From: Actinomycetota bacterium
Lineage (GTDB): Bacteria; Actinomycetota; Aquicultoria; Subteraquimicrobiales; Subteraquimicrobiaceae
Direction: 5' to 3'
Assembly: GCA_030018275.1 (NCBI GenBank)
Contig: JASEGB010000008.1
Location: 6,353 to 70,352, forward strand
Length of the DNA stretch: 64,000 nucleotides
Shown here: in pieces, positions 8,062 to 45,672 of the stretch
Position numbering within the stretch: the first letter of the stretch is position 1
Layout: each line of letters begins with the position of its first letter
The notes under the pieces: generated by a model
Databases searched by the model: none
Told to the model about the DNA's origin: nothing
Seen by the model: the letters and a program-made list of their open reading frames with translations, nothing else
Position numbers and translations under genes: made by a program

Positions 8062-8304
8062 CTACCCAGCGAGCTTATTTTCAATGTAATCCACCACATC
8101 TTTCACCGTGGTGATTCGCTCTGCATCTTCGTCTGATATTTCGATGCCGAACTCCTCCTCCAGGGCCATAATCAACTCCACAATGTCTAGGGAATCAGCG
8201 TCCAAATCATCGACGAACGAGGTCTCTGGCGCCAACTTATTTTCATCCACAGTCAGCTTCTCTGCGATGATATCCTTCACCTTGTCATAGATCTCATCGC
8301 TCAT
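8062..8304 (-). CDS. acpP: Acyl carrier protein
   Basis: [20 protein letters not shown]; AGGAGG upstream (alternative start 8310). Confidence 0.97.
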
Positions 8305-8359
8305 TTTCATTTCTCCTCCTTTTCGATTAATTTCCACTTTAAAGTGATATATACATTAA

Positions 8360-9103
8360 TTACATTAGCATTCCTCCATCTACCTGAATTACCTGTCCCG
8401 TGATATAGCTGGCTTCATCAGAGACTAAAAAGGCGATGAGGTTTGCGACTTCCTCCGGTCGACCCAATCTTCCCAGAGGAATCTGTCCAATTATCCGTTC
8501 TCTTATTTCATCCGAGAGCCTTCGGGTCATATCTGTTTCGATGAATCCTGGGGCTATGGCATTAACTCGAATTCCCCGTGAGGCTAGTTCTTTAGCCACC
8601 GTTTTGGTCAGTCCAATGACCCCAGCTTTGGAGGCTGAATAGTTGACTTGCCCCGCATTTCCAGCGATTCCCACAACAGAGGCAATATTTACTATGGTTC
8701 CCCGGCGTTGCTTCAACATATATTTTGCCGCCGCCTGTGTGCAATTGAAGGTACCCTTAAGATTGACAGCCAAAACGGCATCCCATTCTTCTTCCTTCAT
8801 TCGAATGAGAAGATTATCCCGGGTAATTCCAGCGTTGTTGACTAAAATATCGATTCCACCGAAGATTTTGACCGTTTCCTCGATAAGTTTTCTTGCTTCC
8901 TCAAGGATGGAGACATTTGCCTCAATGAATGTGGCTTTTCTTCCGAGCTTTTCGATCTCTTGAATGAGCTCATTCGCTTCCTTGCCGGTTATATCGTTGA
9001 CAACGATGTGAGCTCCGAGCTTCGCCAATTTTAAACAAGTTATCCGTCCAATTCCCCTTGCACTCCCGGTGACCAGGGCCACTCTATCTTGCAAATCAAA
9101 CAT
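8360..9103 (-). CDS. fabG: 3-oxoacyl-ACP reductase
   Basis: [24 protein letters not shown] motifs; fab cluster. Confidence 0.95.
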
Positions 9104-9125
9104 TTCACACCCCCAAATTTATTAT

Positions 9126-10070
9126 CTAGGTTAGAGCTTGTATGGTTTGACGAAAAGATTCAGCGTCTTCAACATTTAAAATCTTGACCGAAGGAGCAGC
9201 TCTTTTAACTAGTCCGGAAAGAACTTTGCCTGGTCCTACTTCGATGAAGACATCGATTCCCACTTTGAGCATTTGCAGAATGGATTGCTCCCAGAGTACC
9301 GAACCGGTAATTTGTTTGCGCAATGCATCTTTCAACTCTTCACCCTCTGTGGAAAGTCTTGCCGTGTAATTGGAGACCACTGGTATTTTAGCATCTTTAA
9401 AGGAAATAGCATCCAGGTGGTTAGCGAATCGTCTTTCCGCTTTCTTCATTAAGGGGGAGTGAAATCCCCCGCCTACCTCTAGTTCCACAACGCGTTTGGC
9501 TCCAGCTTCTTTAAACAACTTGGCTGCCCGTTCGACCATCTGTTTTTCTCCTGAGATTACTACTTGACCGGGGCAGTTATAATTGGCGATGTTAATAATC
9601 CCATTGCTTCTCAGAGAGCCCACGATATCTGCGGCGAATGTCGAATCCATGCCCAATACCGCAAGCATCTTTCCCGGTAATTCTCTCGAAGCTTCTTCCA
9701 TAAGTTCAGCTCGCTTGGCAACGAGCTTTAGGGCCTCCGAAAAATCCAATACCCCCGCGGCTACCAACGCGGAGTACTCGCCGAGGCTATGGCCCGCAAC
9801 GATATCGGGTTTAATACCCTCTTTGTTCAAGAGAAACCAGCAAATGAAATTAATGATGAATACAGCGGGTTGCGTATTTACGGTTTCTACTAATTTTTGT
9901 CTTGGGCCATGAAAGCATAGGAGGGAAAGATCTCTTCCGAGAATTTTCTCTGCCTCTTTGAAGAACTGGGCCACTTTTGGAAAAGCGACTAAAGCCCTTC
10001 CCATCCCAACATATTGAGATCCTTGTCCGGGAAAGATAAAGGCAATTTTCCGAATCGAATTCTCCCCCAT
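9126..10070 (-). CDS. fabD: Malonyl-CoA:ACP transacylase
   Basis: FPGQGSQ, GHSLGEY, GFHS, EVGPG. Confidence 0.96.
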   Translation of the reverse strand: MGENSIRKIAFIFPGQGSQYVGMGRALVAFPKVAQFFKEAEKILGRDLSLLCFHGPRQKLVETVNTQPAVFIINFICWFLLNKEGIKPDIVAGHSLGEYSALVAAGVLDFSEALKLVAKRAELMEEASRELPGKMLAVLGMDSTFAADIVGSLRSNGIINIANYNCPGQVVISGEKQMVERAAKLFKEAGAKRVVELEVGGGFHSPLMKKAERRFANHLDAISFKDAKIPVVSNYTARLSTEGEELKDALRKQITGSVLWEQSILQMLKVGIDVFIEVGPGKVLSGLVKRAAPSVKILNVEDAESFRQTIQALT

Positions 10071-15779: not shown

Positions 15780-18182
15780 TTAGCTGTGGAATAGCCACTC
15801 TAAATTAGCTGCAAATTTCCTTTTTACCTCGCCTAACAATAAACGATGTTCCAGTTGGGATAAATTGGGGTCACCTTCAACCAATTCAAATGCCTCTTTT
15901 CTGGCTTTTAAGAGGATGTTGATATCCCTTGTGAGTTTAGCCAGTTTTAAATCGGGCAGACCCGATTGACGGGTACCAAAAAGCTCACCTTCGCCACGGA
16001 TTTCAAGATCGGCTTCGGCGAGTTTAAAACCATCGATAATATTTCCAATGGCCTCAATGCGTCTTTTGCCTTCATCAGTAACCGGATCGGCGAAGAGGAT
16101 GCAGTAAGATTTATACTTTCCCCTACCGATTCTACCTCTTAATTGATGCAGTTGAGCCAGACCGAACCGTTCAGCGTCCTCGATTATCATGACTGAGGCA
16201 TTGGGTACATCGATGCCCACTTCTATGACCGTCGTCGAGATGAGTATATCCAGTGAACCATCTCGGAACTTTCGCATGACTTCTTCCTTCTCCGCAGGTT
16301 TAAGCTTGCCGTGGATGAAACCAACTCTTAAGTCGGGGAAGATTTGAGTTCTAAGCCTCTCGACTTCTTCCATCACCGCTTTTACCTCTAATTTATCGGA
16401 CTCCTCAATTAGAGGACAAATGATATAGCCCTGTCGCCCTCGTTTTATTTCGCTTTTCATCTTCTCATAAGCCCACCGTCGATGTTCGCGATCACAAATG
16501 ATGGTTTCCACATGTTCCGCTAGCTTTCTTCCCTTGGGAAGTTCACGAATGATGGATACATCTAAATCGCCGTAGAGAGTGAGGGAAAGCGTTCGAGGGA
16601 TCGGAGTAGCCGTCATGATGAGAACATCTGGATTATATCCTCGCCCGCCGTGTTTTGGGGCCTTTTCCTTTAAGTTCACTCTTTGCCTCACCCCGAATCG
16701 ATGTTGTTCATCGATTACCGCCAATCCCAAAGATTTAAACTGAACTCCTTCTTGAATGAGGGAATGGGTGCCCACGACGAGATGCACCTCTCCTTGGCGG
16801 ATTTTCTCTTGAATCTCCCCTTTCTCTTTGGGGGATGTACTCCCAGTAAGCAGGGTTACCCTAATACCAAGGGACTCTACCAAATCTCTAATTTTGTGGA
16901 AATGTTGCTCGGCTAAAACCTCGGTGGGAACCATTATTGCCCCTTGATGCCCATTTTGGATGGTGATGAGCAAAGCGGCTACAGCAACAATGGTCTTTCC
17001 CGATCCCACTTCTCCTTGCAAAAGTCGATTCATGGGATGGGGACTGGCTAAGTCTTCCTGTATCTCGGCGATTGCTCTTTTTTGATCTCCGGTTAGTTCG
17101 TAAGGCAATGATGAATAAAAATTCTTTAGGAGCTCGCCTTCGATGATATGCCTGATTCCATTGGTCTCTCGCTCCAAACGCTTTTTTCGAATGGCTAAGC
17201 CAAGCTGCATCAGGAAAAGTTCCTCAAATAGAAGTCTTGATCTCGCCCTGTGGCATAAGGATTCCGTAGTTGGGAAATGAATTTCTTGAAGGGCAAGGGA
17301 TCTGGGGAGTAAATCAAACTTTACGCGGAGCCAGGCTGGAAGAGCATCAGGTAAATCTGCATAATTGTCTATCAGGCATTTTATAATCCGACGTATCATA
17401 CCTACTGAAAGTTTCTGTGTGGCTGGATGTAAGGGCACGATTCTACTGGTGTGAACGGTATCCTGTCCTAAATCCGTCTTCTCGTCGAGAATATCGAAGA
17501 GCGGACTTTCGATCTGTAACTGTCCAAACCTGTAGGAAACTTTTCCACTGAAGGCAACGATTGTTCCTCCCCTTAATCTTTCAGCAATAGAGTTCTGATA
17601 ATCATATCGAGCGGAGGCTTTTGAGAACCATACTCCATAAAGGTAAGCTGTTCCATCATAGATTCCAATGTTTAACAATCGAGTGCCCCTACGCCCTTTA
17701 ACCCGGCGGATGGCTCGTACAACGCCCACTACGGTGACTTCTTCTCCCACTTTAACATCTGAAATCGCCCTCAACTTGGCCAGATTTAAATAGCGGTAGG
17801 GAAAATGATATAATAAATCCTCAATATCCTCAATATTGAGCCGTTTTAGATACCGAGCATTGGCAGCCCCCACATATTTTAATGAGCGGACGGGGGAGTC
17901 GAGGAAAATCTGGTTGTGAGATAATCTTCGCTTCGGAAGAGATTCATCGAGAAGGAATTTTGTAGAATCAAATCTATTCAGTAAGATTAACCGATACGGA
18001 ATTGAAATCTTCGAATAATTCCGAAATGCCTCGGAAAATTGCTCATCCAGATTTCTTGATATAATACTCTCCTTATTTTTTAAATAGCTACCAAAACCTC
18101 CGATTACTGCATTATTTTGAGCTCCTAACCTTTTCTCTAACGCTAGAGCTTTAAAGATACCGTGGACGGAGCCTGCCTCCAA
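15780..18182 (-). CDS. recG: ATP-dependent DNA helicase RecG
   Basis: QGEVGSGKT, DEQHRFG, TATPIPR, QLRGRIGRG. Confidence 0.97.
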   Translation of the reverse strand: MEAGSVHGIFKALALEKRLGAQNNAVIGGFGSYLKNKESIISRNLDEQFSEAFRNYSKISIPYRLILLNRFDSTKFLLDESLPKRRLSHNQIFLDSPVRSLKYVGAANARYLKRLNIEDIEDLLYHFPYRYLNLAKLRAISDVKVGEEVTVVGVVRAIRRVKGRRGTRLLNIGIYDGTAYLYGVWFSKASARYDYQNSIAERLRGGTIVAFSGKVSYRFGQLQIESPLFDILDEKTDLGQDTVHTSRIVPLHPATQKLSVGMIRRIIKCLIDNYADLPDALPAWLRVKFDLLPRSLALQEIHFPTTESLCHRARSRLLFEELFLMQLGLAIRKKRLERETNGIRHIIEGELLKNFYSSLPYELTGDQKRAIAEIQEDLASPHPMNRLLQGEVGSGKTIVAVAALLITIQNGHQGAIMVPTEVLAEQHFHKIRDLVESLGIRVTLLTGSTSPKEKGEIQEKIRQGEVHLVVGTHSLIQEGVQFKSLGLAVIDEQHRFGVRQRVNLKEKAPKHGGRGYNPDVLIMTATPIPRTLSLTLYGDLDVSIIRELPKGRKLAEHVETIICDREHRRWAYEKMKSEIKRGRQGYIICPLIEESDKLEVKAVMEEVERLRTQIFPDLRVGFIHGKLKPAEKEEVMRKFRDGSLDILISTTVIEVGIDVPNASVMIIEDAERFGLAQLHQLRGRIGRGKYKSYCILFADPVTDEGKRRIEAIGNIIDGFKLAEADLEIRGEGELFGTRQSGLPDLKLAKLTRDINILLKARKEAFELVEGDPNLSQLEHRLLLGEVKRKFAANLEWLFHS

Positions 18183-31486: not shown

Positions 31487-31933
31487 TTACCAACGAGGAG
31501 TCGAGCGTGAAGGCTCTGAGAGGATGGTCTTTAATACGTCAGCTCTACTTATAATGCCCACCAATTCCTTGCCTCTTACAACGGGCAATCTTTTAATGCG
31601 TTTTTCTATCATTAAAGTGGCGATCTCTTCCACGGGTGTATCTCCACCTACACATATCACATCGGTTGTCATGATCTCCTTCGCTTTGGTCCCCTTTATT
31701 TTCCAATATTCGTCCTTAAATTTTTTCCGATTTGCCCAGTAATCCGAGATTGGCATTGAGGTCTCTTTATAGATGAGATCACTTTCAGAGACTATACCCA
31801 CGATCTTATTTTCATCATCAACCACTGGGACACCGGTGATTCGATTTTTGAGCAGGATATCGATTATCTCCTTTACCGATGTCTCTCTCTTTATGGTGAT
31901 CACCTTTCTGGTCATAATATCTTTAGCCAGCAT
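31487..31933 (-). CDS. CBS-domain protein
   Basis: AKDIMT..ITGVPVVD..GIVSESD; second CBS KRLPVV..GIISRAD. Confidence 0.92.
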   Translation of the reverse strand: MLAKDIMTRKVITIKRETSVKEIIDILLKNRITGVPVVDDENKIVGIVSESDLIYKETSMPISDYWANRKKFKDEYWKIKGTKAKEIMTTDVICVGGDTPVEEIATLMIEKRIKRLPVVRGKELVGIISRADVLKTILSEPSRSTPRW

Positions 31934-32387
31934 GGATGGCTTCCCTTCCCTGGATAATTATACCCTTTAATATATCGGATTTACTGACGATGCCCACAAC
32001 TCTTCCGTTGCGGGTCACAAATACCCTTTTTACCCCCTTTGTGATCATCAAGGATGCAATTTCTCTGGCGGGGGTATCTTCACTAACACAGATGACGTTC
32101 GTGCTCATGATATCCTGAGCCTTGGTTCCGGTCATTTTCTGGATTTCCTCAACTAATTTTTTATGATTGACGTATCGACCATGTTGGTAGATTAAAGTTA
32201 CAGATATTGGTAATTTCTTTTTATATAGAAGGTCCTCTTCTGTAACAACTCCAATGATCTTACATTTATCATCCACAACGGGGACTCCACTGATTTTATA
32301 ATCGAGCAAAAGAGTTACAATCTCTTCAATGGTAGCCTCCTTTTTTACGACTATTACATCTCTGCTCATGATGTCCTTTGCCTTCAT
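31923..32387 (-). CDS. CBS-domain protein (tandem paralog)
   Basis: AKDIMS..ISGVPVVD..GVVTEED; GIVSKSD. Confidence 0.92.
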   Translation of the reverse strand: MKAKDIMSRDVIVVKKEATIEEIVTLLLDYKISGVPVVDDKCKIIGVVTEEDLLYKKKLPISVTLIYQHGRYVNHKKLVEEIQKMTGTKAQDIMSTNVICVSEDTPAREIASLMITKGVKRVFVTRNGRVVGIVSKSDILKGIIIQGREAIHAG

Positions 32388-32536
32388 TCCTATCGCCTCC
32401 CATTATTTGATCGTTGCTTTTAGAGCTTGTTCTTTTTTTCACAATTTAATTATACCATTTCTGTGAAATGAAAAAAGAATTAGGATCGGAAAAAATTTGG
32501 GAAGAATTTAATTTAAAAGGTCACAAAACCAAAGTA

Positions 32537-38045: not shown

Positions 38046-38996
38046 TTACTTCGGGCTTAATTTCTTGAGTCTTTCGATCCCCTTATCGATCTCGGTGACC
38101 AGCTTTTCATGCAACTTGGTATTGCTCGCGGCGATGGTTGAGACTTGGGCTTCAACTCCTGAACCTAAAAGAGGATGATCATCCAAAGGATTGCCCCATC
38201 CATCGGTTATGATGCATCCTGCCTCTTGAGCGATCAGAGTAGCTGCGGCAATATCATAGGGGTTGTTATTGAGGATGTTCCCCTTCCCCACCCTTTCAAA
38301 TTCCCTTTTCACCCAGGGAACTTCTTCGATCATCCGCTTTCCGATATCAACATAGGCATCCATCTGCCCAGTGAGAAGACGTGTGATGGAGAAGCAAGCA
38401 CTGCCTATATCGAAGACTCCTCCATTAACCGAAGAGATGTTGACTAAATCCCCAAGCACCGTTATAAGGAGATCGGCGGGTCGTCCTCGAAATCCAAAGG
38501 TCCAGAAGAGTGTGGCGAGGTCCACATTTGTGCTTGGAGTGGGCTCCATTTCTTCCCCATTTCTCTCAATCCTTACACCCTTACCTCTTTCGGCGGTGAA
38601 CATAGTGTCATTTTTGATCTCCTGGACACAGCCATAAAAGACATCCTTCATGAGTGGTTTGGGTTTATAAGTAGCAACTGCCACTGAGACGCAGCAGGAT
38701 TCCAGACCGGCAGCTGCGGGGCGAGAACCATCGACCGGATCCACGATGAGCACATACTCTGGCTCTCCGAAAATAACGAGCCCCTTGTCCTCTGAATAAT
38801 AAGCGATATTCCCCTGAGCTTTTAAGTAGGATTCAACCTCTCTCTCGGCTATTTCATCGATAGCAAAGGTGGTATTCCCACCCACTGCTTGACCAAGAGA
38901 TACTCTTGATGCAATTTTCCCCAAATGGGGCTTGACTATCCTCTGAATCCTTTGAGTTAACTCATACGCTAAATCCTTAATATCCATCCCTGCCAC
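38046..38996 (-). CDS. Inositol monophosphatase / FBPase family protein
   Basis: SED, DPVDGS, PYDIAAA..EAG. Confidence 0.88.
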   Translation of the reverse strand: MAGMDIKDLAYELTQRIQRIVKPHLGKIASRVSLGQAVGGNTTFAIDEIAEREVESYLKAQGNIAYYSEDKGLVIFGEPEYVLIVDPVDGSRPAAAGLESCCVSVAVATYKPKPLMKDVFYGCVQEIKNDTMFTAERGKGVRIERNGEEMEPTPSTNVDLATLFWTFGFRGRPADLLITVLGDLVNISSVNGGVFDIGSACFSITRLLTGQMDAYVDIGKRMIEEVPWVKREFERVGKGNILNNNPYDIAAATLIAQEAGCIITDGWGNPLDDHPLLGSGVEAQVSTIAASNTKLHEKLVTEIDKGIERLKKLSPK

Positions 38997-39412
38997 TACC
39001 CAAACTCTTTAGGATCCACCCTACTAACCTCTTCAATTTGGTCAAAGTGCTTATCTGTGCTAATGATTTCCCTGATATCGTTATTTATCATCACTGCAAC
39101 GTGAATATGGTCACGAGGAGGTAGGTCAGGATATTTTTTTAGGAGTTCGAAGGTTATTTCTACTTCCCTTTTGGTTACAGACAAAACGTCTGAAACAGCA
39201 ACCGAAAAATCCTTTGCCGTCTCTAACCCATCTTTTCCTTTGCCTATCATAAAATATCGATATAAGATCTCCTGTAATACTTCAGTATCAGTAACAGCTG
39301 TGATTTTTTCATCGCCTATATCTCTCAAGATAGCGGAGCAGGATTGCTTGTACTCATGCCCTTTACCAACCGCATACATCACTATATTTGCGTCAATGAA
39401 ATATATGCTCAT
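38996..39412 (-). CDS. VapC-like PIN toxin
   Basis: FIDANI, EVLQE, PRDHIHVA, STDKHFD. Confidence 0.9.
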   Translation of the reverse strand: MSIYFIDANIVMYAVGKGHEYKQSCSAILRDIGDEKITAVTDTEVLQEILYRYFMIGKGKDGLETAKDFSVAVSDVLSVTKREVEITFELLKKYPDLPPRDHIHVAVMINNDIREIISTDKHFDQIEEVSRVDPKEFG

Positions 39413-39654
39413 AGAATAGCTCCCTTCATTATCTCTTCTTCCATTTTTTCCCAATCATCTATGGGTAATTCACGCGAAAGCATACGTTCGACCGCTTTTT
39501 TCTTCTCTAACTTGGTGCGTTCATGTAGCAACTTTTCTATTGCCTCTCGAATAACAGAAGCCACTGATTTCTTACGCTTTTTAGCATACAATTCAAGTTT
39601 CCTATACTGCTCTGGCGATAATAATATTTGTAGGCGTTTAGTGAGCTCAGACAT
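39409..39654 (-). CDS. Ribbon-helix-helix (CopG) antitoxin
   Basis: RLQILL..YRKL..AK..KKSVASVIREAI; 4-nt overlap with the PIN gene. Confidence 0.88.
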   Translation of the reverse strand: MSELTKRLQILLSPEQYRKLELYAKKRKKSVASVIREAIEKLLHERTKLEKKKAVERMLSRELPIDDWEKMEEEIMKGAIL

Positions 39655-39885
39655 CTCAATTCCTCCTTAAAATGTGTATGTGGATATTATACATCACTAT
39701 CAGCTTAAATCAAATTTCGCAAACAATCAAATCCCACCCACGATTCAAAAATCGATATCTAAAGAGATTTTGCCGCGAAAATTTACTCACTACCAGCAGC
39801 TTTAAAAAATTACTCGTTTAGGAGGATTTTAGCAATTTATAGCGAATGTAATGCAATAATGATTTTGTTACTTAAAGGAGGGGAG

Positions 39886-40731
39886 ATGGGGGGGCGAGCA
39901 AGAGATCAAGTAAAAGGAGATATTGCAAAAAGCACATTTTTCTGGAATTTATATGGGATATGTTATGATGGCATAAATATCGCTATGCCCTATCGCAAAC
40001 TCCTTTTTGATGCATATATAAACCTTGATATCCGGCCAGGACACAAAATTTTAGATGCGGGCTGTGGAACAGGTAATTTCGAAAGATTCATCTCGAGTAG
40101 AAACATTCCTCCTATCGAAATAGAAGCAGTAGACTTCTCACCTATTATGTTGTCTCGTGCGAGGAAGAAATGCAAGGATTTAAAGTTTGTTAATTTTGCT
40201 TTAGTGAACTTAGATGGAAAGTTACCTTATCCAGATGATACGTTTGATCGCATACTTTGTATAAATGTCCTCTATGCTTTAGAGAATCCACAAAATACCA
40301 TTTGTGAATTTATTCGTGTACTTAAACCAGAAGGAAAGATGGTTCTTACAAATCCAAAACCTGATTCTCGATTCGCACCACTTATTCAAGATCATTTTAA
40401 GAGGATTGGAAATATTTGGGGATTCTCTCGAAAAGCAGGGGTTCTAGCAAAAACACTACTAATGTTATCCACCATTGGTCTTATCCCAATTCTAATAAAT
40501 GTATTTATAATCGATAAAAAGGGAAGAAAGCAGGAATATCACTTTCTACCAGAAGAGGAATTTGTAACAGTATTTAAACAAAATGGTTTCGGGGGCATCG
40601 AAATAGAACCCGCTTATGCGGATCAAAATTTGTTTATAGTAGTGGCGGAAATCATTCCTCAAGAAACGAGGATGCAGTCCATTAATTTTGAATCGATGGA
40701 ATTTCCATCCAAACGCTCATCGAGGTCTTAA
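39886..40731 (+). CDS. Class I SAM-dependent methyltransferase with C-terminal hydrophobic segment
   Basis: ILDAGCGTG, AVDFS, FDRILCINVLY, LKPEG; GVLAKTLLMLSTIGLIPILINVFII. Confidence 0.9.
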   Translation: MGGRARDQVKGDIAKSTFFWNLYGICYDGINIAMPYRKLLFDAYINLDIRPGHKILDAGCGTGNFERFISSRNIPPIEIEAVDFSPIMLSRARKKCKDLKFVNFALVNLDGKLPYPDDTFDRILCINVLYALENPQNTICEFIRVLKPEGKMVLTNPKPDSRFAPLIQDHFKRIGNIWGFSRKAGVLAKTLLMLSTIGLIPILINVFIIDKKGRKQEYHFLPEEEFVTVFKQNGFGGIEIEPAYADQNLFIVVAEIIPQETRMQSINFESMEFPSKRSSRS

Positions 40732-40815
40732 GATATAATTCTCGGTAGTTAGATTTCATACCTTTTTCTTCTAAGAATTTGTTTGCGATAACTACTTGGA
40801 AGGGGAGTTATATTA

Positions 40816-42324
40816 ATGTCAAAATTTGGAGGTTTAATGCAAAATTTAATAATGGTTAATCCCAAAAGAGTAAACTTGTTCCTTTCAAATGCTCCTGCAA
40901 AGCTTTTAGAAAAGCTAGGAAGGAAAAATGCTTTAGCAGTATTCCGTGAGGCAGCTCAAAAGGTATCAGCCTACCAATATTTTCTCGAAGAGCACAGTAT
41001 TGATCCTAGGAAAATAAAGTACTGGGAGGAAATTCCTCTTACAGACAAGGAGAATTATTTTAGGAAATACCCATTTGAGGAACTCTGTTTAGAACCCTTG
41101 GGTATGATGGACATTATTTACCGTAGCTCGGGAAATTCAGGACAACCATTTTACTGGCCGCAGTTAGCGAGTAAGGACAAAATGATACCTGCATACTTTG
41201 ATCTTTATTACAACTATCTTCTTGATCTGAGGCATTCAACACTGATTGTCAACGTTCTCGCTATGGGTACGTGGGTTGCTGGAATCACAATCACAACAAA
41301 TCTAAAACAAATAGCATTAAAGGACGATTATAAACTAACTATTGTTTCCCCCGGGTCTGATATTAAAAGTGCTTTAGAACTAATTGAGAGATTCGGTAAG
41401 CTATACGACCAAATCTTAATAATTGGCTACCCGCCTTTTACTGAACATCTTATATCAAAAGGAGAGGAAACAGGGATCAAGTGGCAAGAAATGCGGATAA
41501 GAATTCAAACGGGGGGTGAGCCATTCACAGAAGCTTGGCGTGAGAAAGTTAAGGAAAGATTAGGGATAGCTAAGGATGATCTTCTTGGAGTAACTAGTGT
41601 TTTTGGTTCATCTGATACTGGCTCTGGAATGGTTGGTTTTGAAACCGCACTCACTATCTTAATTAAAAAGCTGGCTTCCCAAAATGAGAAGTTATGCGTA
41701 GAACTATTCAAAGGCATCCGATTGCCGACTTTAATGCAGTTTGTACCCATGAGCTACTTTATAGAGGAAATTGATGGTGAGATTGTGCTTACCGCCAAGA
41801 GTGGTATTCCATTAGTCCGCTACAATATTCATGACCGAGGAGGAGTGGTTTCCTTTGACAAAATGGTAGAAATACTTCACTTGCATGGGTACGATGTAAT
41901 CTCACTTCTTTCTCAAATGGGATACAAAACTATCTGGCGTCTGCCTTTCTTTTACTGCTTCGGTCGGAGAGACGCTGTTTCAATCGATGGTGCTAATATC
42001 TATGCCGAAGATATCCAGGAGGCTATTTCAGAAAAGGCAATAAAAGAAATCAATAATTTTAAGCTATCAATTGAGGAAGGTGAAAAACAAAATATGCGCT
42101 TTATAATTTTTGTGGAGTTGAGAGAAGGTATAGAACCGAAAGATGAAATGGTAAAGTTATATCATAATATTTTCTTAGAAAAGCTCCTGGAATTGAACGA
42201 TGATTTTCGTAAATCGTACCAAGATAATCCCCAATCTTGCGATCCTTTAATTAAGATTTATAAGCTTGGTCAAGGACCATTTGCTGAAGATGTTGGGAGA
42301 ATTAAACAAAAACGCATCATTTGA
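40816..42324 (+). CDS. Phenylacetate-CoA-ligase-like (ANL) adenylating enzyme
   Basis: RSSGNSG P-loop variant, IGYPP, GGE, FGSSDTG, PLVRYNIHD, GRRD..GANIY, C-terminal Lys. Confidence 0.85.
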   Translation: MSKFGGLMQNLIMVNPKRVNLFLSNAPAKLLEKLGRKNALAVFREAAQKVSAYQYFLEEHSIDPRKIKYWEEIPLTDKENYFRKYPFEELCLEPLGMMDIIYRSSGNSGQPFYWPQLASKDKMIPAYFDLYYNYLLDLRHSTLIVNVLAMGTWVAGITITTNLKQIALKDDYKLTIVSPGSDIKSALELIERFGKLYDQILIIGYPPFTEHLISKGEETGIKWQEMRIRIQTGGEPFTEAWREKVKERLGIAKDDLLGVTSVFGSSDTGSGMVGFETALTILIKKLASQNEKLCVELFKGIRLPTLMQFVPMSYFIEEIDGEIVLTAKSGIPLVRYNIHDRGGVVSFDKMVEILHLHGYDVISLLSQMGYKTIWRLPFFYCFGRRDAVSIDGANIYAEDIQEAISEKAIKEINNFKLSIEEGEKQNMRFIIFVELREGIEPKDEMVKLYHNIFLEKLLELNDDFRKSYQDNPQSCDPLIKIYKLGQGPFAEDVGRIKQKRII

Positions 42325-42461
42325 TAAAAATGAACGAGTTTTGTGACGAAATCCCTCTCACCCTCCCGCTTTATGGCTTTCTCAAATTTAAGCAACCCCT
42401 AAAGTACCTGACAATTGATACCGATAATTAATGTGATAATTGCGAAAGGAGGATTTCAAAG

Positions 42462-44951
42462 TTGCCTCTTCCTTTTTTTCATTTATGTATTTTATGCGCA
42501 ATAATAATCTCCATTGTGATTATGGGATCATTTGTCTATTTCAGAGATAGGAGAAGTAGTACCCACAGAGCTTTTGCTGCTCTGACGCTTAGCATTACCA
42601 TTTGGATATTATCTCTCTATATATCTGATCTACATCTGAGTTATAGCGCAGCACTTTTGTGGAATCGTATAGTAATGGCCGCAGGTGTTTCAATGGGAAT
42701 GACCATATTTCATTTTTCTATGGTTTTCCCAGAAAGGAAAGTTTGGCTCCCTCCATGGTATAAGTTTGGAAACTTTTTTATCGGCTTTCTTTTTATCCTG
42801 GCAACCCTTTTCACTGATTTAGTTGTCAAGGAAATCCAATACTTTAACTGGGGCATTAATATTGCTTCTGGATACTTATTCATACCTGTGCTGATTTGGG
42901 CTTCGAGTATTGTTGGAGCTACTTTTATTAATTTTGGCATAAAATTTTTCAAGTTCCAGGGGATAAGAAAAATTCAACTTTTGTATTTATTTGCTGGTTT
43001 TTTCTTTTTTCTTGGAATCGGGATGATAACTAATCTAATTCTCCCAGTAATAACTGGCATGAATCCTCTGGCTAAGTTTGGTCCTTATTTCGTTGTATTT
43101 TTAGTAGGTTTCACTGCTTATGCGATTGTTAAGTATCGTCTCATGGATATTAGGTTGGTTGTGGCCAGAAGTGTGGTTTACTCACTATTAGTTCTAGCTA
43201 TAGGTGCCATTTACATTTCAATAATCTTCTTCCTAAAGCGCGGTTATGAAACCACTTTGCACATTAATCGAGACACATTGTTTATCATTGCTGGATTTGC
43301 AGTTGCCTTTGGATTCCAGCCTCTGCGAAGGTTTCTGCAGAAATATACGGATAAAATCTTCTTCAAGGAAATGTATGATCCCCAAGAGCTATTGGGCAAG
43401 CTGAGTAAAATAATGAGTTCCACATTGAAGCTCGATGACCTGCTAAATTCGATGTTGAAGATGATTGTAAGTGAGATGAGGATAGGCAAAGCAGCTTTTG
43501 TCCTAACGAGTAATGGAGATATCATCCATGTAAAAACGATTGGATACGGAAGAATATTGAATTCCTCCTGGAGGAAAGTAGCCAGTTTGATTAAAGACAA
43601 AGAGATAATTGTGGCCGATGAATTAATGGAAGAGTCTAAGGAAAAGGATATCCTGAGGGAATTGGAAATAGCCGTTTTGGTTCCCTTACAAGCGGAAAGT
43701 AACCTCATCGGGGTATTAGTACTGGGTGAAAAGCGATCGGGGGATATGTTCACCATTCAAGATTTGAAATTCTTGGGGGTTTTAGCTCCTGAAGTGGCAG
43801 TTGCCATAAAGAATGCGGAGCTATTTGAAGAGAAAGAGAAAAGGATTTTAGAGCTCAGCGCCCTTAATAAGCTGGCTTTTTCATTGGGTGCGGAGTTGGA
43901 TATAAAGGATATTTTGAATCAAGCTATTGATCAAGCACTTCTTGTAACCGGAGCGGATTCAGGTTCAATAATGCTTCTAGACGAAGAGACGCAGACGCTC
44001 ACTATTAAAGCAGCTCGAGGCATTGAGCCCCAATTCCAGAGAAAGACAAGGTTGAAGGTTGGTCAAGGGATCGCTGGTTGGGTAGTGAAGGCGAGTGAGC
44101 CCCTGATCATAACGGACACGGAAGATGGGCGCTTTAAAGAGCTCTTGCGACGCGATGAGATTATATCCGCCCTTTCCGTTCCCCTTAAAGCCAAAGAAAA
44201 GGTCATCGGAGTCTTAAGTGTAAATCGTAAAACTTCTAAAGAACCCTTCACCAAGGAAAATCTGAATCTGATTTCTTCATTTGCTGCCCAGGTGGCTGTA
44301 GCTATCGAAAATGCGAGGTTATACAAGGATTTGGAGATGACCTTCTTGGGTGCCATCTCCGCCCTAGCTGCTGCGGTGGAAGCGAAGGATCATTATACCT
44401 TCGGACACTCACAGGTGGTTACAAGGTACGCCATAGCCATTGCCAAGGAGCTTTCCTTACCCGAGAGCGAGATCGAAAGCATTCGGATTGCGAGTATGCT
44501 CCATGATATCGGCAAGATAGGGTTGGATGGTACTATTCTGAATAAACCGGGTAAATTAACTCCCGAGGAAAGAGCCCTGGTCAATCTACATCCCCTCATA
44601 GGTGTCAACATCCTCAAATCATTGGAGTTCTTGAAAGGGGCAATACCACTCATCCTTTATCACCATGAACATTTCGATGGTATGGGTTACCCAGAAGGAA
44701 TAGCTGGAAAAGCAATTCCTCTAGGAGCGCGGATTATTGCTGTGGCTGACGCTTTCAATGCGATGGTTTCAGAACGTCCCTATCGCTCCGCACTAAGTAT
44801 TGAGGAAGCAATCGAAGAACTTAGAAATTACTCAGGTACCCAATTTGATCCTACCGTAGTCGAGGCATTTTTGAGGATACTGCGAAGAGAATCAAGCGAA
44901 CCCCCTGAAATGTATCTAAAGACTACTACCGACTCCTCACCCCCAACTTAG
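42462..44951 (+). CDS. Membrane sensor: 7TM (HisKA_7TM-like) - GAF - GAF - HD-GYP phosphodiesterase
   Basis: ~7 hydrophobic helices ending YAIVKYRLMDI; two GAF-like repeats (VPL..GVL, AIENA); HDIGK, HHE..DG.GYP, AVADAF; TTG start after AAAGGAGG. Confidence 0.9.
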   Translation: MPLPFFHLCILCAIIISIVIMGSFVYFRDRRSSTHRAFAALTLSITIWILSLYISDLHLSYSAALLWNRIVMAAGVSMGMTIFHFSMVFPERKVWLPPWYKFGNFFIGFLFILATLFTDLVVKEIQYFNWGINIASGYLFIPVLIWASSIVGATFINFGIKFFKFQGIRKIQLLYLFAGFFFFLGIGMITNLILPVITGMNPLAKFGPYFVVFLVGFTAYAIVKYRLMDIRLVVARSVVYSLLVLAIGAIYISIIFFLKRGYETTLHINRDTLFIIAGFAVAFGFQPLRRFLQKYTDKIFFKEMYDPQELLGKLSKIMSSTLKLDDLLNSMLKMIVSEMRIGKAAFVLTSNGDIIHVKTIGYGRILNSSWRKVASLIKDKEIIVADELMEESKEKDILRELEIAVLVPLQAESNLIGVLVLGEKRSGDMFTIQDLKFLGVLAPEVAVAIKNAELFEEKEKRILELSALNKLAFSLGAELDIKDILNQAIDQALLVTGADSGSIMLLDEETQTLTIKAARGIEPQFQRKTRLKVGQGIAGWVVKASEPLIITDTEDGRFKELLRRDEIISALSVPLKAKEKVIGVLSVNRKTSKEPFTKENLNLISSFAAQVAVAIENARLYKDLEMTFLGAISALAAAVEAKDHYTFGHSQVVTRYAIAIAKELSLPESEIESIRIASMLHDIGKIGLDGTILNKPGKLTPEERALVNLHPLIGVNILKSLEFLKGAIPLILYHHEHFDGMGYPEGIAGKAIPLGARIIAVADAFNAMVSERPYRSALSIEEAIEELRNYSGTQFDPTVVEAFLRILRRESSEPPEMYLKTTTDSSPPT

Positions 44952-44953
44952 AA

Positions 44954-44978
44954 TGGTGCGCTTGGCGGGATTTGAACC
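44954..44978 (-). repeat. 25-bp duplicate of the tRNA-Arg 3' end (att-like)
   Basis: TGGTGCGCTTGGCGGGATTTGAACC identical to 45153-45177. Confidence 0.9.
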
Positions 44979-45152: not shown

Positions 45153-45228
45153 TGGTGCGCTTGGCGGGATTTGAACCCGCGACCTTGGGATCCGGAGTCC
45201 CACGCTCTATCCCCTGAGCTACAAGCGC
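45153..45228 (-). tRNA. tRNA-Arg(CCG)
   Basis: GCGCTTG acceptor, TGGGA-CTCCGGA-TCCCA anticodon arm, GGTTCAAATCC, encoded CCA. Confidence 0.97.
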
Positions 45229-45256: not shown

Positions 45257-45282
45257 AAACGGGTCTAAAGACCCGTTTCTAC
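45257..45282 (-). repeat. GTAG-type REP
   Basis: GTAG-AAACGGGTCT-TT-AGACCCGTTT. Confidence 0.75.
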
Positions 45283-45293
45283 TTTTTTGGGAA

Positions 45294-45575
45294 CTAGTAA
45301 TATCTTATATAAAAGGAGTCAAATTCGCCAGTGTAATCTTCCCACTGAACATCAATATTTCTGACATGAGCTTCGGGTGGACCTATATGACACCAGTCCA
45401 CCATCCTGCGAACTTTATCCTCCTCCCCTTCAAAAACAGCTTCCACTCGGCCATCAGAGCAATTTCTCACCCAACCCGCTACATCGAGCTTTTCAGCCTG
45501 GTGACAAGTATAAGAGCGAAAGAAAACACCTTGAACTCTGCCTTCTATCAGAACATGGGCGCGAACTTTTGACAT
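45294..45575 (-). CDS. acyP: Acylphosphatase
   Basis: GRVQGVFFR, GWVRN..DG.VE. Confidence 0.95.
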   Translation of the reverse strand: MSKVRAHVLIEGRVQGVFFRSYTCHQAEKLDVAGWVRNCSDGRVEAVFEGEEDKVRRMVDWCHIGPPEAHVRNIDVQWEDYTGEFDSFYIRYY

Positions 45576-45612: not shown

Positions 45613-45672
45613 AAACAGGTCTAAAGACCTGTTTCTACATAAAATAATTGGAGTCTAAAGACCTATTTCTAC
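45613..45672 (-). repeat. Two GTAG-type REP copies
   Basis: GTAG-AAACAGGTCT-TT-AGACCTGTTT (45613-45638) and a degenerate copy (45647-45672). Confidence 0.75.

Follow-up and report, generated by a model that had tools for sequence, protein, structure and literature searches.

A PaaK-type ligase, a methyltransferase and a HisKA_7TM sensor with HD-GYP output form a candidate signal and receptor module in an Actinomycetota genome

Here we describe a cassette of three co-oriented genes in a stretch of 64,000 nucleotides from contig JASEGB010000008.1 of an Actinomycetota bacterium (the window in the following). The genes lie on the plus strand and encode an S-adenosylmethionine (SAM)-dependent methyltransferase of 290 amino acids (39859-40731), a PaaK-type ANL ligase of 502 amino acids (40816-42324) and a sensor of 829 amino acids (42462-44951), which combines a seven-transmembrane (7TM) input domain of the HisKA_7TM family with two GAF domains and an HD-GYP output domain. 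Our survey of related loci reveals that the linkage of this ligase to a 7TM sensor is conserved across lineages, despite shuffled gene order and differing outputs. Judging from this context and from the predicted protein families, we see about an even chance that methyltransferase, ligase and sensor form a module consisting of a signal-maker and its receptor.

Relatives of the ligase were gathered from a protein database (91 matches, none of them with a Pfam domain), from one genome per species of the Genome Taxonomy Database (GTDB; more than 571, 80 loci kept) and from JGI metagenomes (more than 527, 80 loci kept). Clustering at 90% identity yielded 108 non-redundant ligases, which a neighbour-joining tree divided into a cyanobacteria-dominated clade of 39 representatives and 67 others. 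For the linkage counts, we employed only loci with at least 2 kb of flanking sequence on both sides (30 outside and 31 inside the cyanobacteria-type clade); 7TM genes were assigned by a hidden Markov model of our own (round-2 hits) and then checked with Pfam. Outside the cyanobacteria-type clade, a HisKA_7TM gene lies within 1.5 kb of the ligase gene in 25 of 30 loci, and 24 of the 30 have a gene for a methyltransferase or a ThiF-like protein within 2.5 kb (ThiF in 16, methyltransferase in 11, both in three). Inside the clade, none of the 31 loci has a 7TM gene within 4 kb of the ligase. The Pfam check of 49 ligase-adjacent sensors returned HisKA_7TM (PF16927) in 45, HisKA in 31, HATPase_c in 29, GAF in 14 and HD_5 in two. 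By these counts (25/30 loci and 45/49 sensors), genes for the candidate synthase and the membrane sensor are conserved neighbours. A preliminary description of this DNA had proposed a search for the ligase and methyltransferase beside HisKA_7TM proteins with differing outputs and had let its case depend on linkage in other genomes. The search was positive, the 25 loci including kinase, GAF-kinase and GAF-HD-GYP outputs, and the homologues proved to be linked in many lineages.

Ligase loci were found in Saccharibacteria, Kerfeldbacteria, Berkelbacteria and other Patescibacteria, in Coriobacteriia and other Actinomycetota, and in one 'Eubacteriales' and one gammaproteobacterial metagenome-assembled genome (MAG). 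The sensor gene stands directly downstream of the ligase gene on the same strand in most loci. Other arrangements comprise a convergent sensor gene (L013, L014, L015, L021 and L124), a divergent one (L007), a ThiF gene between ligase and sensor (L006 and L025) and a ligase gene flanked by two 7TM genes (L013/L089). A cassette identical in makeup to that of the window, i.e., methyltransferase, ligase and 7TM-GAF-HD-GYP sensor, is present in a Coriobacteriia MAG (L012), and a contig from a sediment metagenome (L109) carries methyltransferase, ligase and sensor genes with the sensor split in two. One might hold this linkage to be functionally meaningless, i.e., inherited synteny or hitch-hiking of genes from unrelated processes, given that many loci stem from related Patescibacteria MAGs and that the window cassette is a mosaic (see below). 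However, the genes stay adjacent in distant phyla even where their order and orientation, the output domain and the accessory enzyme differ, none of the 31 cyanobacteria-type control loci has a 7TM gene within 4 kb of the ligase, and a partial correlation (see below) is specific to the 7TM domain. We therefore regard meaningless linkage as barely credible. Among the cyanobacterial relatives (L026-L088, e.g., L074 at 8110-9810, L061 and L028), which come from heterocystous and other species, the ligases are ~34-35% identical and are often accompanied by one or two divergent membrane Ser/Thr kinases.

The module occurs in two main versions. The first is formed by methyltransferase, ligase and 7TM sensor, often with GAF domains, and the second by a ThiF-like protein, in some cases an MFS transporter, the ligase and a 7TM kinase; three loci contain both enzymes. 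The ligase-adjacent methyltransferases are homologous to the one of the window. The ThiF-like proteins fall into the generic E1/ThiF family, below all equivalog cut-offs, and many loci have the ThiF gene overlapping the ligase gene or directly adjoining it. An MFS transporter is encoded between ThiF and ligase in several Patescibacteria loci, and SWEET-type transporters occur in some variants. ThiF/E1-type enzymes usually activate the C-termini of proteins or peptides, which, together with the overlapping or abutting genes, would favour a protein modification system, in which the ligase, aided by the ThiF-like enzyme in the variants, acylates or adenylylates the sensor or a response regulator and thereby tunes the receptor. 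Yet, no ThiS-, MoaD- or ubiquitin-like open reading frame (ORF) ending in GG was found near any module, and the 14 GG-ending ORFs that were found look spurious, being mostly antisense inside the ligase gene. Moreover, none of the solved PaaK-family neighbours returned by Foldseek acts on a protein, the window lacks ThiF, and E2- or JAMM-like proteins were not found with the ligase in related loci. Protein modification is thus very improbable in our judgment. Because GG-ending ThiS/MoaD-like ORFs were not found near the modules, sulfur-carrier or ubiquitin-like chemistry in cis is also disfavoured, and the analogy of ThiF, AMP-ligase and methyltransferase to thioacid chemistry is left unsupported.

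Further insights came from the sensor side. A word-indexed search with the 7TM domain alone retrieved 13 proteins and a search with a LuxI-like protein two, the reciprocal test consisting of four look-ups. In a Patescibacteria locus (L091, P0101), a LuxI/TraI-like synthase-type gene lies directly upstream of the 7TM gene with a gap of 3 bp; its product matches PF00765, the TraI model of NCBIfam (2e-14) and TIGR03694 (1.4e-12). Its 73% relative in L173 shows the identical layout. In both loci (L091 6345-8593, L173 1982-3868), a LuxI/TraI-like protein of 217 amino acids is encoded immediately upstream of a HisKA_7TM histidine kinase, and the pair is possibly an acyl-signal system in bacteria of the candidate phyla radiation (CPR). 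Another locus (L174, 94-1833) encodes an acyltransferase-methyltransferase fusion beside a 7TM sensor, and the N-terminus of the fusion matches TIGR03694 at 5e-15. Tandem 7TM-GAF genes with a methyltransferase gene directly downstream were seen on a short contig (L175, P0096), and one look-up was uninformative, with the 7TM gene at the end of the contig (L092, P0098). The 7TM sensor family is therefore paired with three differing kinds of acyl- or methyl-transfer enzyme, from which we infer that the sensor perceives what its partner enzymes make or modify, as the pairing would otherwise be hard to explain. Response regulators beside the sensors are mostly bare receiver domains, and the output in the window is an HD-GYP domain, which speaks against the view that the sensor does no more than control transcription of a neighbouring catabolic operon. 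Several Patescibacteria-type loci also contain, a few kb upstream, genes for a large secreted protein with C39/CHAP peptidase and VWA domains and for a small GreA/GreB-like protein (L001 2025-4756, L004 4411-6285, L006 4622-4855, L008 3786-4325). These may represent lineage synteny or an extra component.

Co-variation of ligase and sensor was assessed from pairwise distances of 28 ligase/sensor pairs with kinase outputs. Ligase distances gave r = 0.64 when compared with those of the 7TM domain and r = 0.45 when compared with those of the sensor's own kinase core. Controlled for the kinase core, ligase and 7TM domain still showed a partial correlation of 0.51, which none of 2000 permutations attained; controlled for the 7TM domain, ligase and kinase core showed one of 0.006. 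This pattern fits a specific coupling of the ligase to the input domain of the sensor.

Several observations weigh against a module of signal-maker and receptor. Shared descent is only imperfectly controlled for by the kinase core, and many loci belong to related Patescibacteria, so that the counts are phylogenetically non-independent. Ligases without a sensor are found in a gammaproteobacterial and planctomycete subclade, where the neighbours are SelO, an M48 peptidase, an ABC transporter and OYE, as well as in L041 and L055. The cyanobacterial clade also lacks the 7TM gene and instead has a divergent Ser/Thr kinase gene within 1 kb of the ligase in 14 of 31 loci; HRD, DFG and APE motifs are readable in this kinase. 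The MFS protein of the variants could import as well as export, and the window cassette is devoid of a transporter gene. The case for a signal module rests on genomic context throughout. Furthermore, ligase and sensor of the window did not strictly co-descend, as judged from their differing closest relatives. For the ligase, the nearest counterpart (68% identity) is encoded in a Saccharibacteria MAG (L001, GC content 0.30), as part of a ThiF-type module with kinase output. For methyltransferase (57%), 7TM domain (41%) and the GAF-HD-GYP part (63%), it is found on the sediment-metagenome contig L109, the ligase of which is only 41% identical to that of the window.

Parts of the module have thus evidently been exchanged between lineages, and the identities suggest gene exchange between Patescibacteria and Actinomycetota. 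A far-reaching extension of the signal-module reading would be that ligase, methyltransferase or ThiF and HisKA_7TM sensor make up a family of cell-cell signalling systems that has so far gone unrecognised and that serves Patescibacteria and some Actinomycetota as their main quorum-sensing-like language, in which host and epibiont lineages may share or eavesdrop on a signal. Such sharing is suggested by the resemblance of the window ligase to the Saccharibacteria one, with methyltransferase and sensor being of other origin; we consider this extension doubtful. The Saccharibacteria locus L001 also holds a second HisKA_7TM gene (16592-17512) ~7 kb downstream of the ligase, which is 38% identical to the 7TM domain of the window, more than is the ligase-adjacent kinase.

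The ligase, identified from the ORF list, a fold model and conserved residues, is predicted to be cytoplasmic and has no match in Pfam. It scores 40.8 bits against a PaaK model of NCBIfam with a cut-off of 700 (NF041878) and 33.4 bits against another with a cut-off of 646 (TIGR02155), with only the N-terminal half aligned, and a sequence search of the PDB yielded PaaK2 at E = 1e-3. An AlphaFold2 (AF2) model based on an alignment of 76 sequences reached a predicted local distance difference test (pLDDT) of 91.4 and a predicted TM-score (pTM) of 0.88. The best Foldseek matches to this model are PaaK2 (2y4o), the Bacteroides acyl-CoA ligase BT_0428, HCL, AjiA1/NatL2 and ClxA, with E-values of 1e-15 to 1e-21, target-normalised TM-scores of up to 0.72 and identities of 13-19%. 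The model thereby displays the two-domain ANL fold of the short PaaK type (PaaK2, BT_0428 and HCL at E = 1e-17 to 1e-21). HCL is 2-hydroxyisobutyryl-CoA ligase, and AjiA1/NatL2 and ClxA are biosynthetic AMP-ligases of the PaaK family.

The conserved ANL elements comprise the P-loop SSGNSG at residues 104-109 (A3), the hinge aspartate D340 within RYNIHD (A8) and the C-terminal lysine K497 (A10). K78, E235, D340 and K497 are invariant in the 76 sequences, the P-loop SSGxSG is nearly so, as are S104, S105, G106, G109, G264 and D267 across the family. At the A5 motif, where YGxTE is usual, the family has YGAAD and the window protein FGSSD (residues 263-267). The model and these residues mark the ligase as an intact adenylating enzyme of the PaaK type, the family of which lacks a Pfam model. 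A catabolic PaaK orthologue was considered and rejected on the score of 40.8 bits against 700 and on the context, since no paa genes were found at the window or at the related loci examined. Grouping with catabolic CoA ligases, which the preliminary description had named as an outcome speaking against its proposal, is accordingly borne out neither by score nor by gene context. An anti-phage defence system was rejected as well: PADLOC gave no match for the ligase, and methyltransferase and ThiF only matched generic domains.

The methyltransferase (ORF list and Pfam; an alternative in-frame ATG lies nine codons in, at 39886) belongs to the Rossmann-type class I SAM enzymes. It matches the Pfam families Methyltransf_31, Methyltransf_11 and Methyltransf_25, the first at 1.8e-21 and 76.8 bits (cut-off 27), and the SAM motif ILDAGCGTG is readable in its translation. 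No NCBIfam equivalog reached its cut-off; weak resemblance was seen to models of phospholipid N-methyltransferase and fatty-acid O-methyltransferase. A hydrophobic insert follows the Rossmann core at about residues 195-220, with one strong Kyte-Doolittle peak of 2.52 at residues 200-218. The insert is kept in 14 of 18 ligase-adjacent homologues, several of which add two to three N-terminal transmembrane helices, and the methyltransferase therefore probably works at the membrane.

This location, the extra helices and the weak likeness to lipid-modifying enzymes would also suit a role in envelope-lipid homeostasis, in which ligase and membrane methyltransferase, joined by PlsC-like acyltransferases in some loci, remodel a lipid, and the 7TM domain monitors this lipid or the bulk membrane as feedback, not communication. 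PlsC-type acyltransferase genes indeed adjoin the module in L001 and occur near the LuxI-like/7TM pair in L091, and the sensing domain lies wholly within the membrane. However, the ThiF-like enzymes and the MFS or SWEET-type transporters of the variants better fit a soluble or exported small molecule, the LuxI-like partners indicate diffusible acyl signals, and the specific co-variation of ligase and 7TM domain suggests a specific ligand over a bulk property. Lipid homeostasis appears distinctly unlikely to us.

The sensor (ORF list and Pfam) begins with the HisKA_7TM input domain (residues 1-230; 42462-43151, plus strand). PF16927 covers residues 11-230 with 41.4 bits, above the gathering cut-off of 28.6. 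An AF2 model of this part, built from a shallow alignment, has a pLDDT of 75.7 overall and of 80-92 over most of residues 10-200. It consists of seven helices, in agreement with the hydropathy peaks, and a β-hairpin loop at residues 122-136. Both the Pfam score and the seven transmembrane helices place the domain in the HisKA_7TM family. Foldseek returned only weak matches to generic seven-helix G-protein-coupled receptors (GPCRs; E-values of at least 1.7e-3, TM-scores of 0.3-0.5). A transporter or enzyme function of the 7TM domain, also considered, found no match of this kind, and the weak GPCR-like ones are uninformative. Nothing in the structure comparison contradicts a putative receptor role.

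Tandem GAF domains follow at approximately residues 302-466 and 479-616 (43362-44309, plus strand), where Pfam GAF, GAF_2 and GAF_3 each match in two stretches; an NCBIfam DgcA-type GAF match covers residues 302-466. The HD-GYP output domain (residues 636-799) and a C-terminal tail extend to the stop codon (44367-44951, plus strand). HD_5 matches at 1.5e-42 and 145.7 bits (cut-off 27.2), and the catalytic motifs HD at 681, HHEH at 734 and GYP at 742 are readable. The NosR-type model for cyclic-di-GMP (c-di-GMP) phosphodiesterases of NCBIfam matches at 2.4e-45, under its cut-off. The HD-GYP domain is fused to 7TM-GAF-GAF, with no receiver domain detected by Pfam, and is predicted to hydrolyse c-di-GMP or a related cyclic dinucleotide.

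If these parts act together, the cytoplasmic ligase would adenylate a carboxylic acid, for which a fatty or aryl-acyl one is the likeliest candidate, and pass the acyl group to a thiol or an amine. The membrane-held methyltransferase would methylate the product or a precursor, most plausibly by capping a carboxylate as methyl ester. The outcome would be an uncharged lipophilic molecule, which partitions into and across the membrane and would be bound there by the seven-helix bundle of the HisKA_7TM domain. The tandem GAF domains would relay the change, and the rate at which the HD-GYP domain hydrolyses c-di-GMP or a related cyclic dinucleotide would change. Other lineages have the core of ligase and 7TM domain wired to histidine-kinase outputs, and there the ThiF-like enzyme replaces or joins the methyltransferase, often together with an MFS transporter. 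The occurrence of the acyltransferase-methyltransferase fusion and of LuxI-like partners suggests an ester-type signal, and we only tentatively, with low confidence, name an N-acyl amino acid ester or a fatty-acid ester as the signal.

The preliminary description had read the cassette as signal synthase and receptor of a quorum-sensing-like module. Recurrent linkage, differing outputs and synthase-type partners in other genomes speak in favour of this; that the enzymes synthesise the ligand, as opposed to consuming or recycling it, as well as its chemistry, its release, its effect on phosphodiesterase activity and the quorum behaviour, we infer from sequence comparisons. Linkage and co-variation would fit a shared ligand equally well in the opposite chemical direction. 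The 7TM domain might sense an external or host-derived acid, and the ligase with methyltransferase or ThiF might activate, detoxify or inactivate the same compound, i.e., a turnover of the signal similar to that by RpfB. ANL ligases, those of the PaaK type included, typically serve catabolism by activating acids, as the structural neighbours PaaK and HCL illustrate, Patescibacteria depend on host metabolites, and the MFS protein encoded between ThiF and ligase in several of their loci is possibly an importer. However, genes for a thioesterase, β-oxidation or the paa pathway were not found downstream in the window or the related loci, and the same type of sensor adjoins biosynthetic LuxI-like and N-acyl-amino-acid-synthase-like enzymes. 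In addition, a membrane-embedded methyltransferase is better explained as the maker of a lipophilic product. We consider such sensing and consumption unlikely.

In the window, the three genes are separated by 84 bp (methyltransferase and ligase) and 137 bp (ligase and sensor). The preliminary description had placed them at 39886-44951, and they are present there in the same orientation, with the methyltransferase ORF beginning upstream, at 39859. Its other readings of the proteins, i.e., a hydrophobic segment in the methyltransferase, the atypical ligase motifs SSGNSG and FGSSD, and intact HD and GYP motifs in the sensor, agree with the results above. So does the absence of aromatic-catabolism genes nearby, none being found among the flanking ORFs scanned with Pfam. 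The VapBC pair it had noted on one side of the cassette (38996-39654, minus strand), a neighbour outside the module, is confirmed by PIN and RHH_1 matches to VapC (38996-39454, minus strand, 6.4e-12) and VapB (39409-39654, minus strand, 1.8e-4), respectively; VapBC is not present in the homologous cassettes examined. Further surroundings recognised by Pfam are an inositol monophosphatase, a GATase and an acylphosphatase, besides the tRNA-Arg described below. The AT-richness described for the cassette holds only to a modest degree, with a GC content of 0.395 below that of the window of 0.439 (methyltransferase 0.368, ligase 0.380, 7TM-coding part 0.366, rest of the sensor 0.447). A promoter and terminator scan of the locus gave fewer matches than the shuffled expectation and no convincing intergenic terminator in the cassette.

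As described before, a duplicate of the 3' end of a tRNA-Arg follows the last stop codon. The tRNA-Arg(ccg) itself, likewise outside the module, lies at 45153-45228 on the minus strand (ARAGORN), and the repeat search revealed an exact 25-nt copy of its 3' end (45153-45177) at 44954-44978, two bases past the stop codon of the sensor gene. The two copies are 174 bp apart, and none of the shuffled sequences contained two matches. Read in the orientation of the tRNA, the order is intact tRNA-Arg, 174 bp, 25-nt repeat and then the cassette, which consequently sits outside the repeat-delimited stretch. The repeat search found no third copy at up to three mismatches, Rfam detected only the tRNA in the locus and no family in the 174-bp spacer, and no integrase or transposase was present among the flanking ORFs scanned with Pfam, which encode housekeeping proteins (PlsY, M23 peptidase, GltX, DJ-1, acylphosphatase) and an HNH protein. 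At 25 other loci scanned, no tRNA was located beside the cassette; 24 were without any tRNA, and L019 had a pair ~9.5 kb upstream of the ligase. A mobile or tRNA-integrated island, which had been hinted at on the grounds of AT-richness, tRNA duplicate and VapBC, is thus rejected. The repeat and its spacer resemble a scar left by a past integration or deletion, and lower GC content and mosaic ancestry still allow for an old horizontal acquisition of the cassette.

Other repeats of the window lie apart from the cassette. A 26-nt palindromic terminator-like element (AAACGGGTCTAAAGACCCGTTTCTAC) is present in three copies of 77-100% identity (45257-45282, 45613-45638 and 45647-45672), which surround the acylphosphatase gene (45294-45575) and may belong to a repeated intergenic hairpin family. 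A 28-nt repeat, also in three copies (75-100% identical) within 31666-32390 and spaced by 436 and 261 bp, lies in or beside the neighbouring minus-strand ORFs 31487-31933 and 31923-32387; its copies are probably paralogous gene segments.

The module of the window appears to follow the logic of known cassettes of synthase and membrane sensor, for which the comparative genomics provides strong support. In the literature searched, a connection between a PaaK-like ligase and HisKA_7TM was not found, nor was a description of the module or of a ligand for HisKA_7TM, a widespread sensor domain. The pairing with ligase, methyltransferase or ThiF, and in some genomes with LuxI-like or N-acyl-amino-acid-synthase-like enzymes, would offer a testable route to this ligand. 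Little is known about signalling in Patescibacteria, on which the module bears. If our reading is true, it would add a new class of signal and a receptor family, assign a function to a ligase family without Pfam model and link c-di-GMP turnover directly to a lipophilic molecule that the cell makes itself and senses in the membrane.

Among the known systems, LuxM/LuxN and CqsA/CqsS of Vibrio and LqsA/LqsS of Legionella have a synthase gene beside the gene of a polytopic sensor, the transmembrane domain of which binds the hydrophobic signal. The LuxI-like synthase and HisKA_7TM kinase of the Patescibacteria loci L091 and L173 match the LuxM/LuxN-type layout exactly. The window differs in having a PaaK-type ligase and a methyltransferase as candidate synthases, a sensor of family PF16927 and an HD-GYP output. 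The fatty-acid signal cluster for the diffusible signal factor (DSF) of Xanthomonas contains the ANL acyl-CoA ligase RpfB, a long-chain FadD-type enzyme in signal turnover, the multi-pass sensor RpfC and the HD-GYP c-di-GMP phosphodiesterase RpfG. By analogy, the window likewise combines an ANL ligase, a multi-pass membrane sensor and an HD-GYP output, but its HD-GYP domain is fused to the sensor via GAF domains without a receiver domain, and its ligase is of the PaaK and not the FadD type. Neither in the window cassette nor at the related loci did Pfam detect an RpfF-type or other crotonase-family gene, which places the module outside the DSF/Rpf family.

The ligase shares the fold of PaaK, AjiA1/NatL2, ClxA and HCL, together with P-loop, hinge aspartate and C-terminal lysine. 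It differs from members of the PaaK family by its low identity, by ~70 additional residues, by FGSSD or YGAAD in place of YGxTE and by the lack of a paa or benzoxazole context. The N-acyl amino acid synthase of PEP-CTERM/exosortase systems (TIGR03694), a LuxI/FeeM-related acyltransferase, is associated with the multi-pass membrane GAF sensor kinase PrsK. Besides the TIGR03694 matches of the L174 fusion and the L091 synthase, the window sensor matches PrsK weakly (1e-5), all of these under the cut-offs; unlike that system, the window employs a ligase and not a GNAT acyltransferase, and no exosortase or PEP-CTERM genes were seen. In the phcBSRQ quorum-sensing system of Ralstonia, the methyltransferase PhcB makes the signal, a fatty-acid methyl ester, and is encoded beside its sensor kinase PhcS (PMC8578825). 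By analogy, the window would resemble this system in its SAM-dependent methyltransferase, a lipophilic signal of the fatty-acid methyl ester kind and the position of the methyltransferase gene close to that of a membrane sensor (PMC8578825), while the phc system lacks an ANL ligase and signals through a phosphorelay to PhcA instead of a sensor-fused HD-GYP domain.

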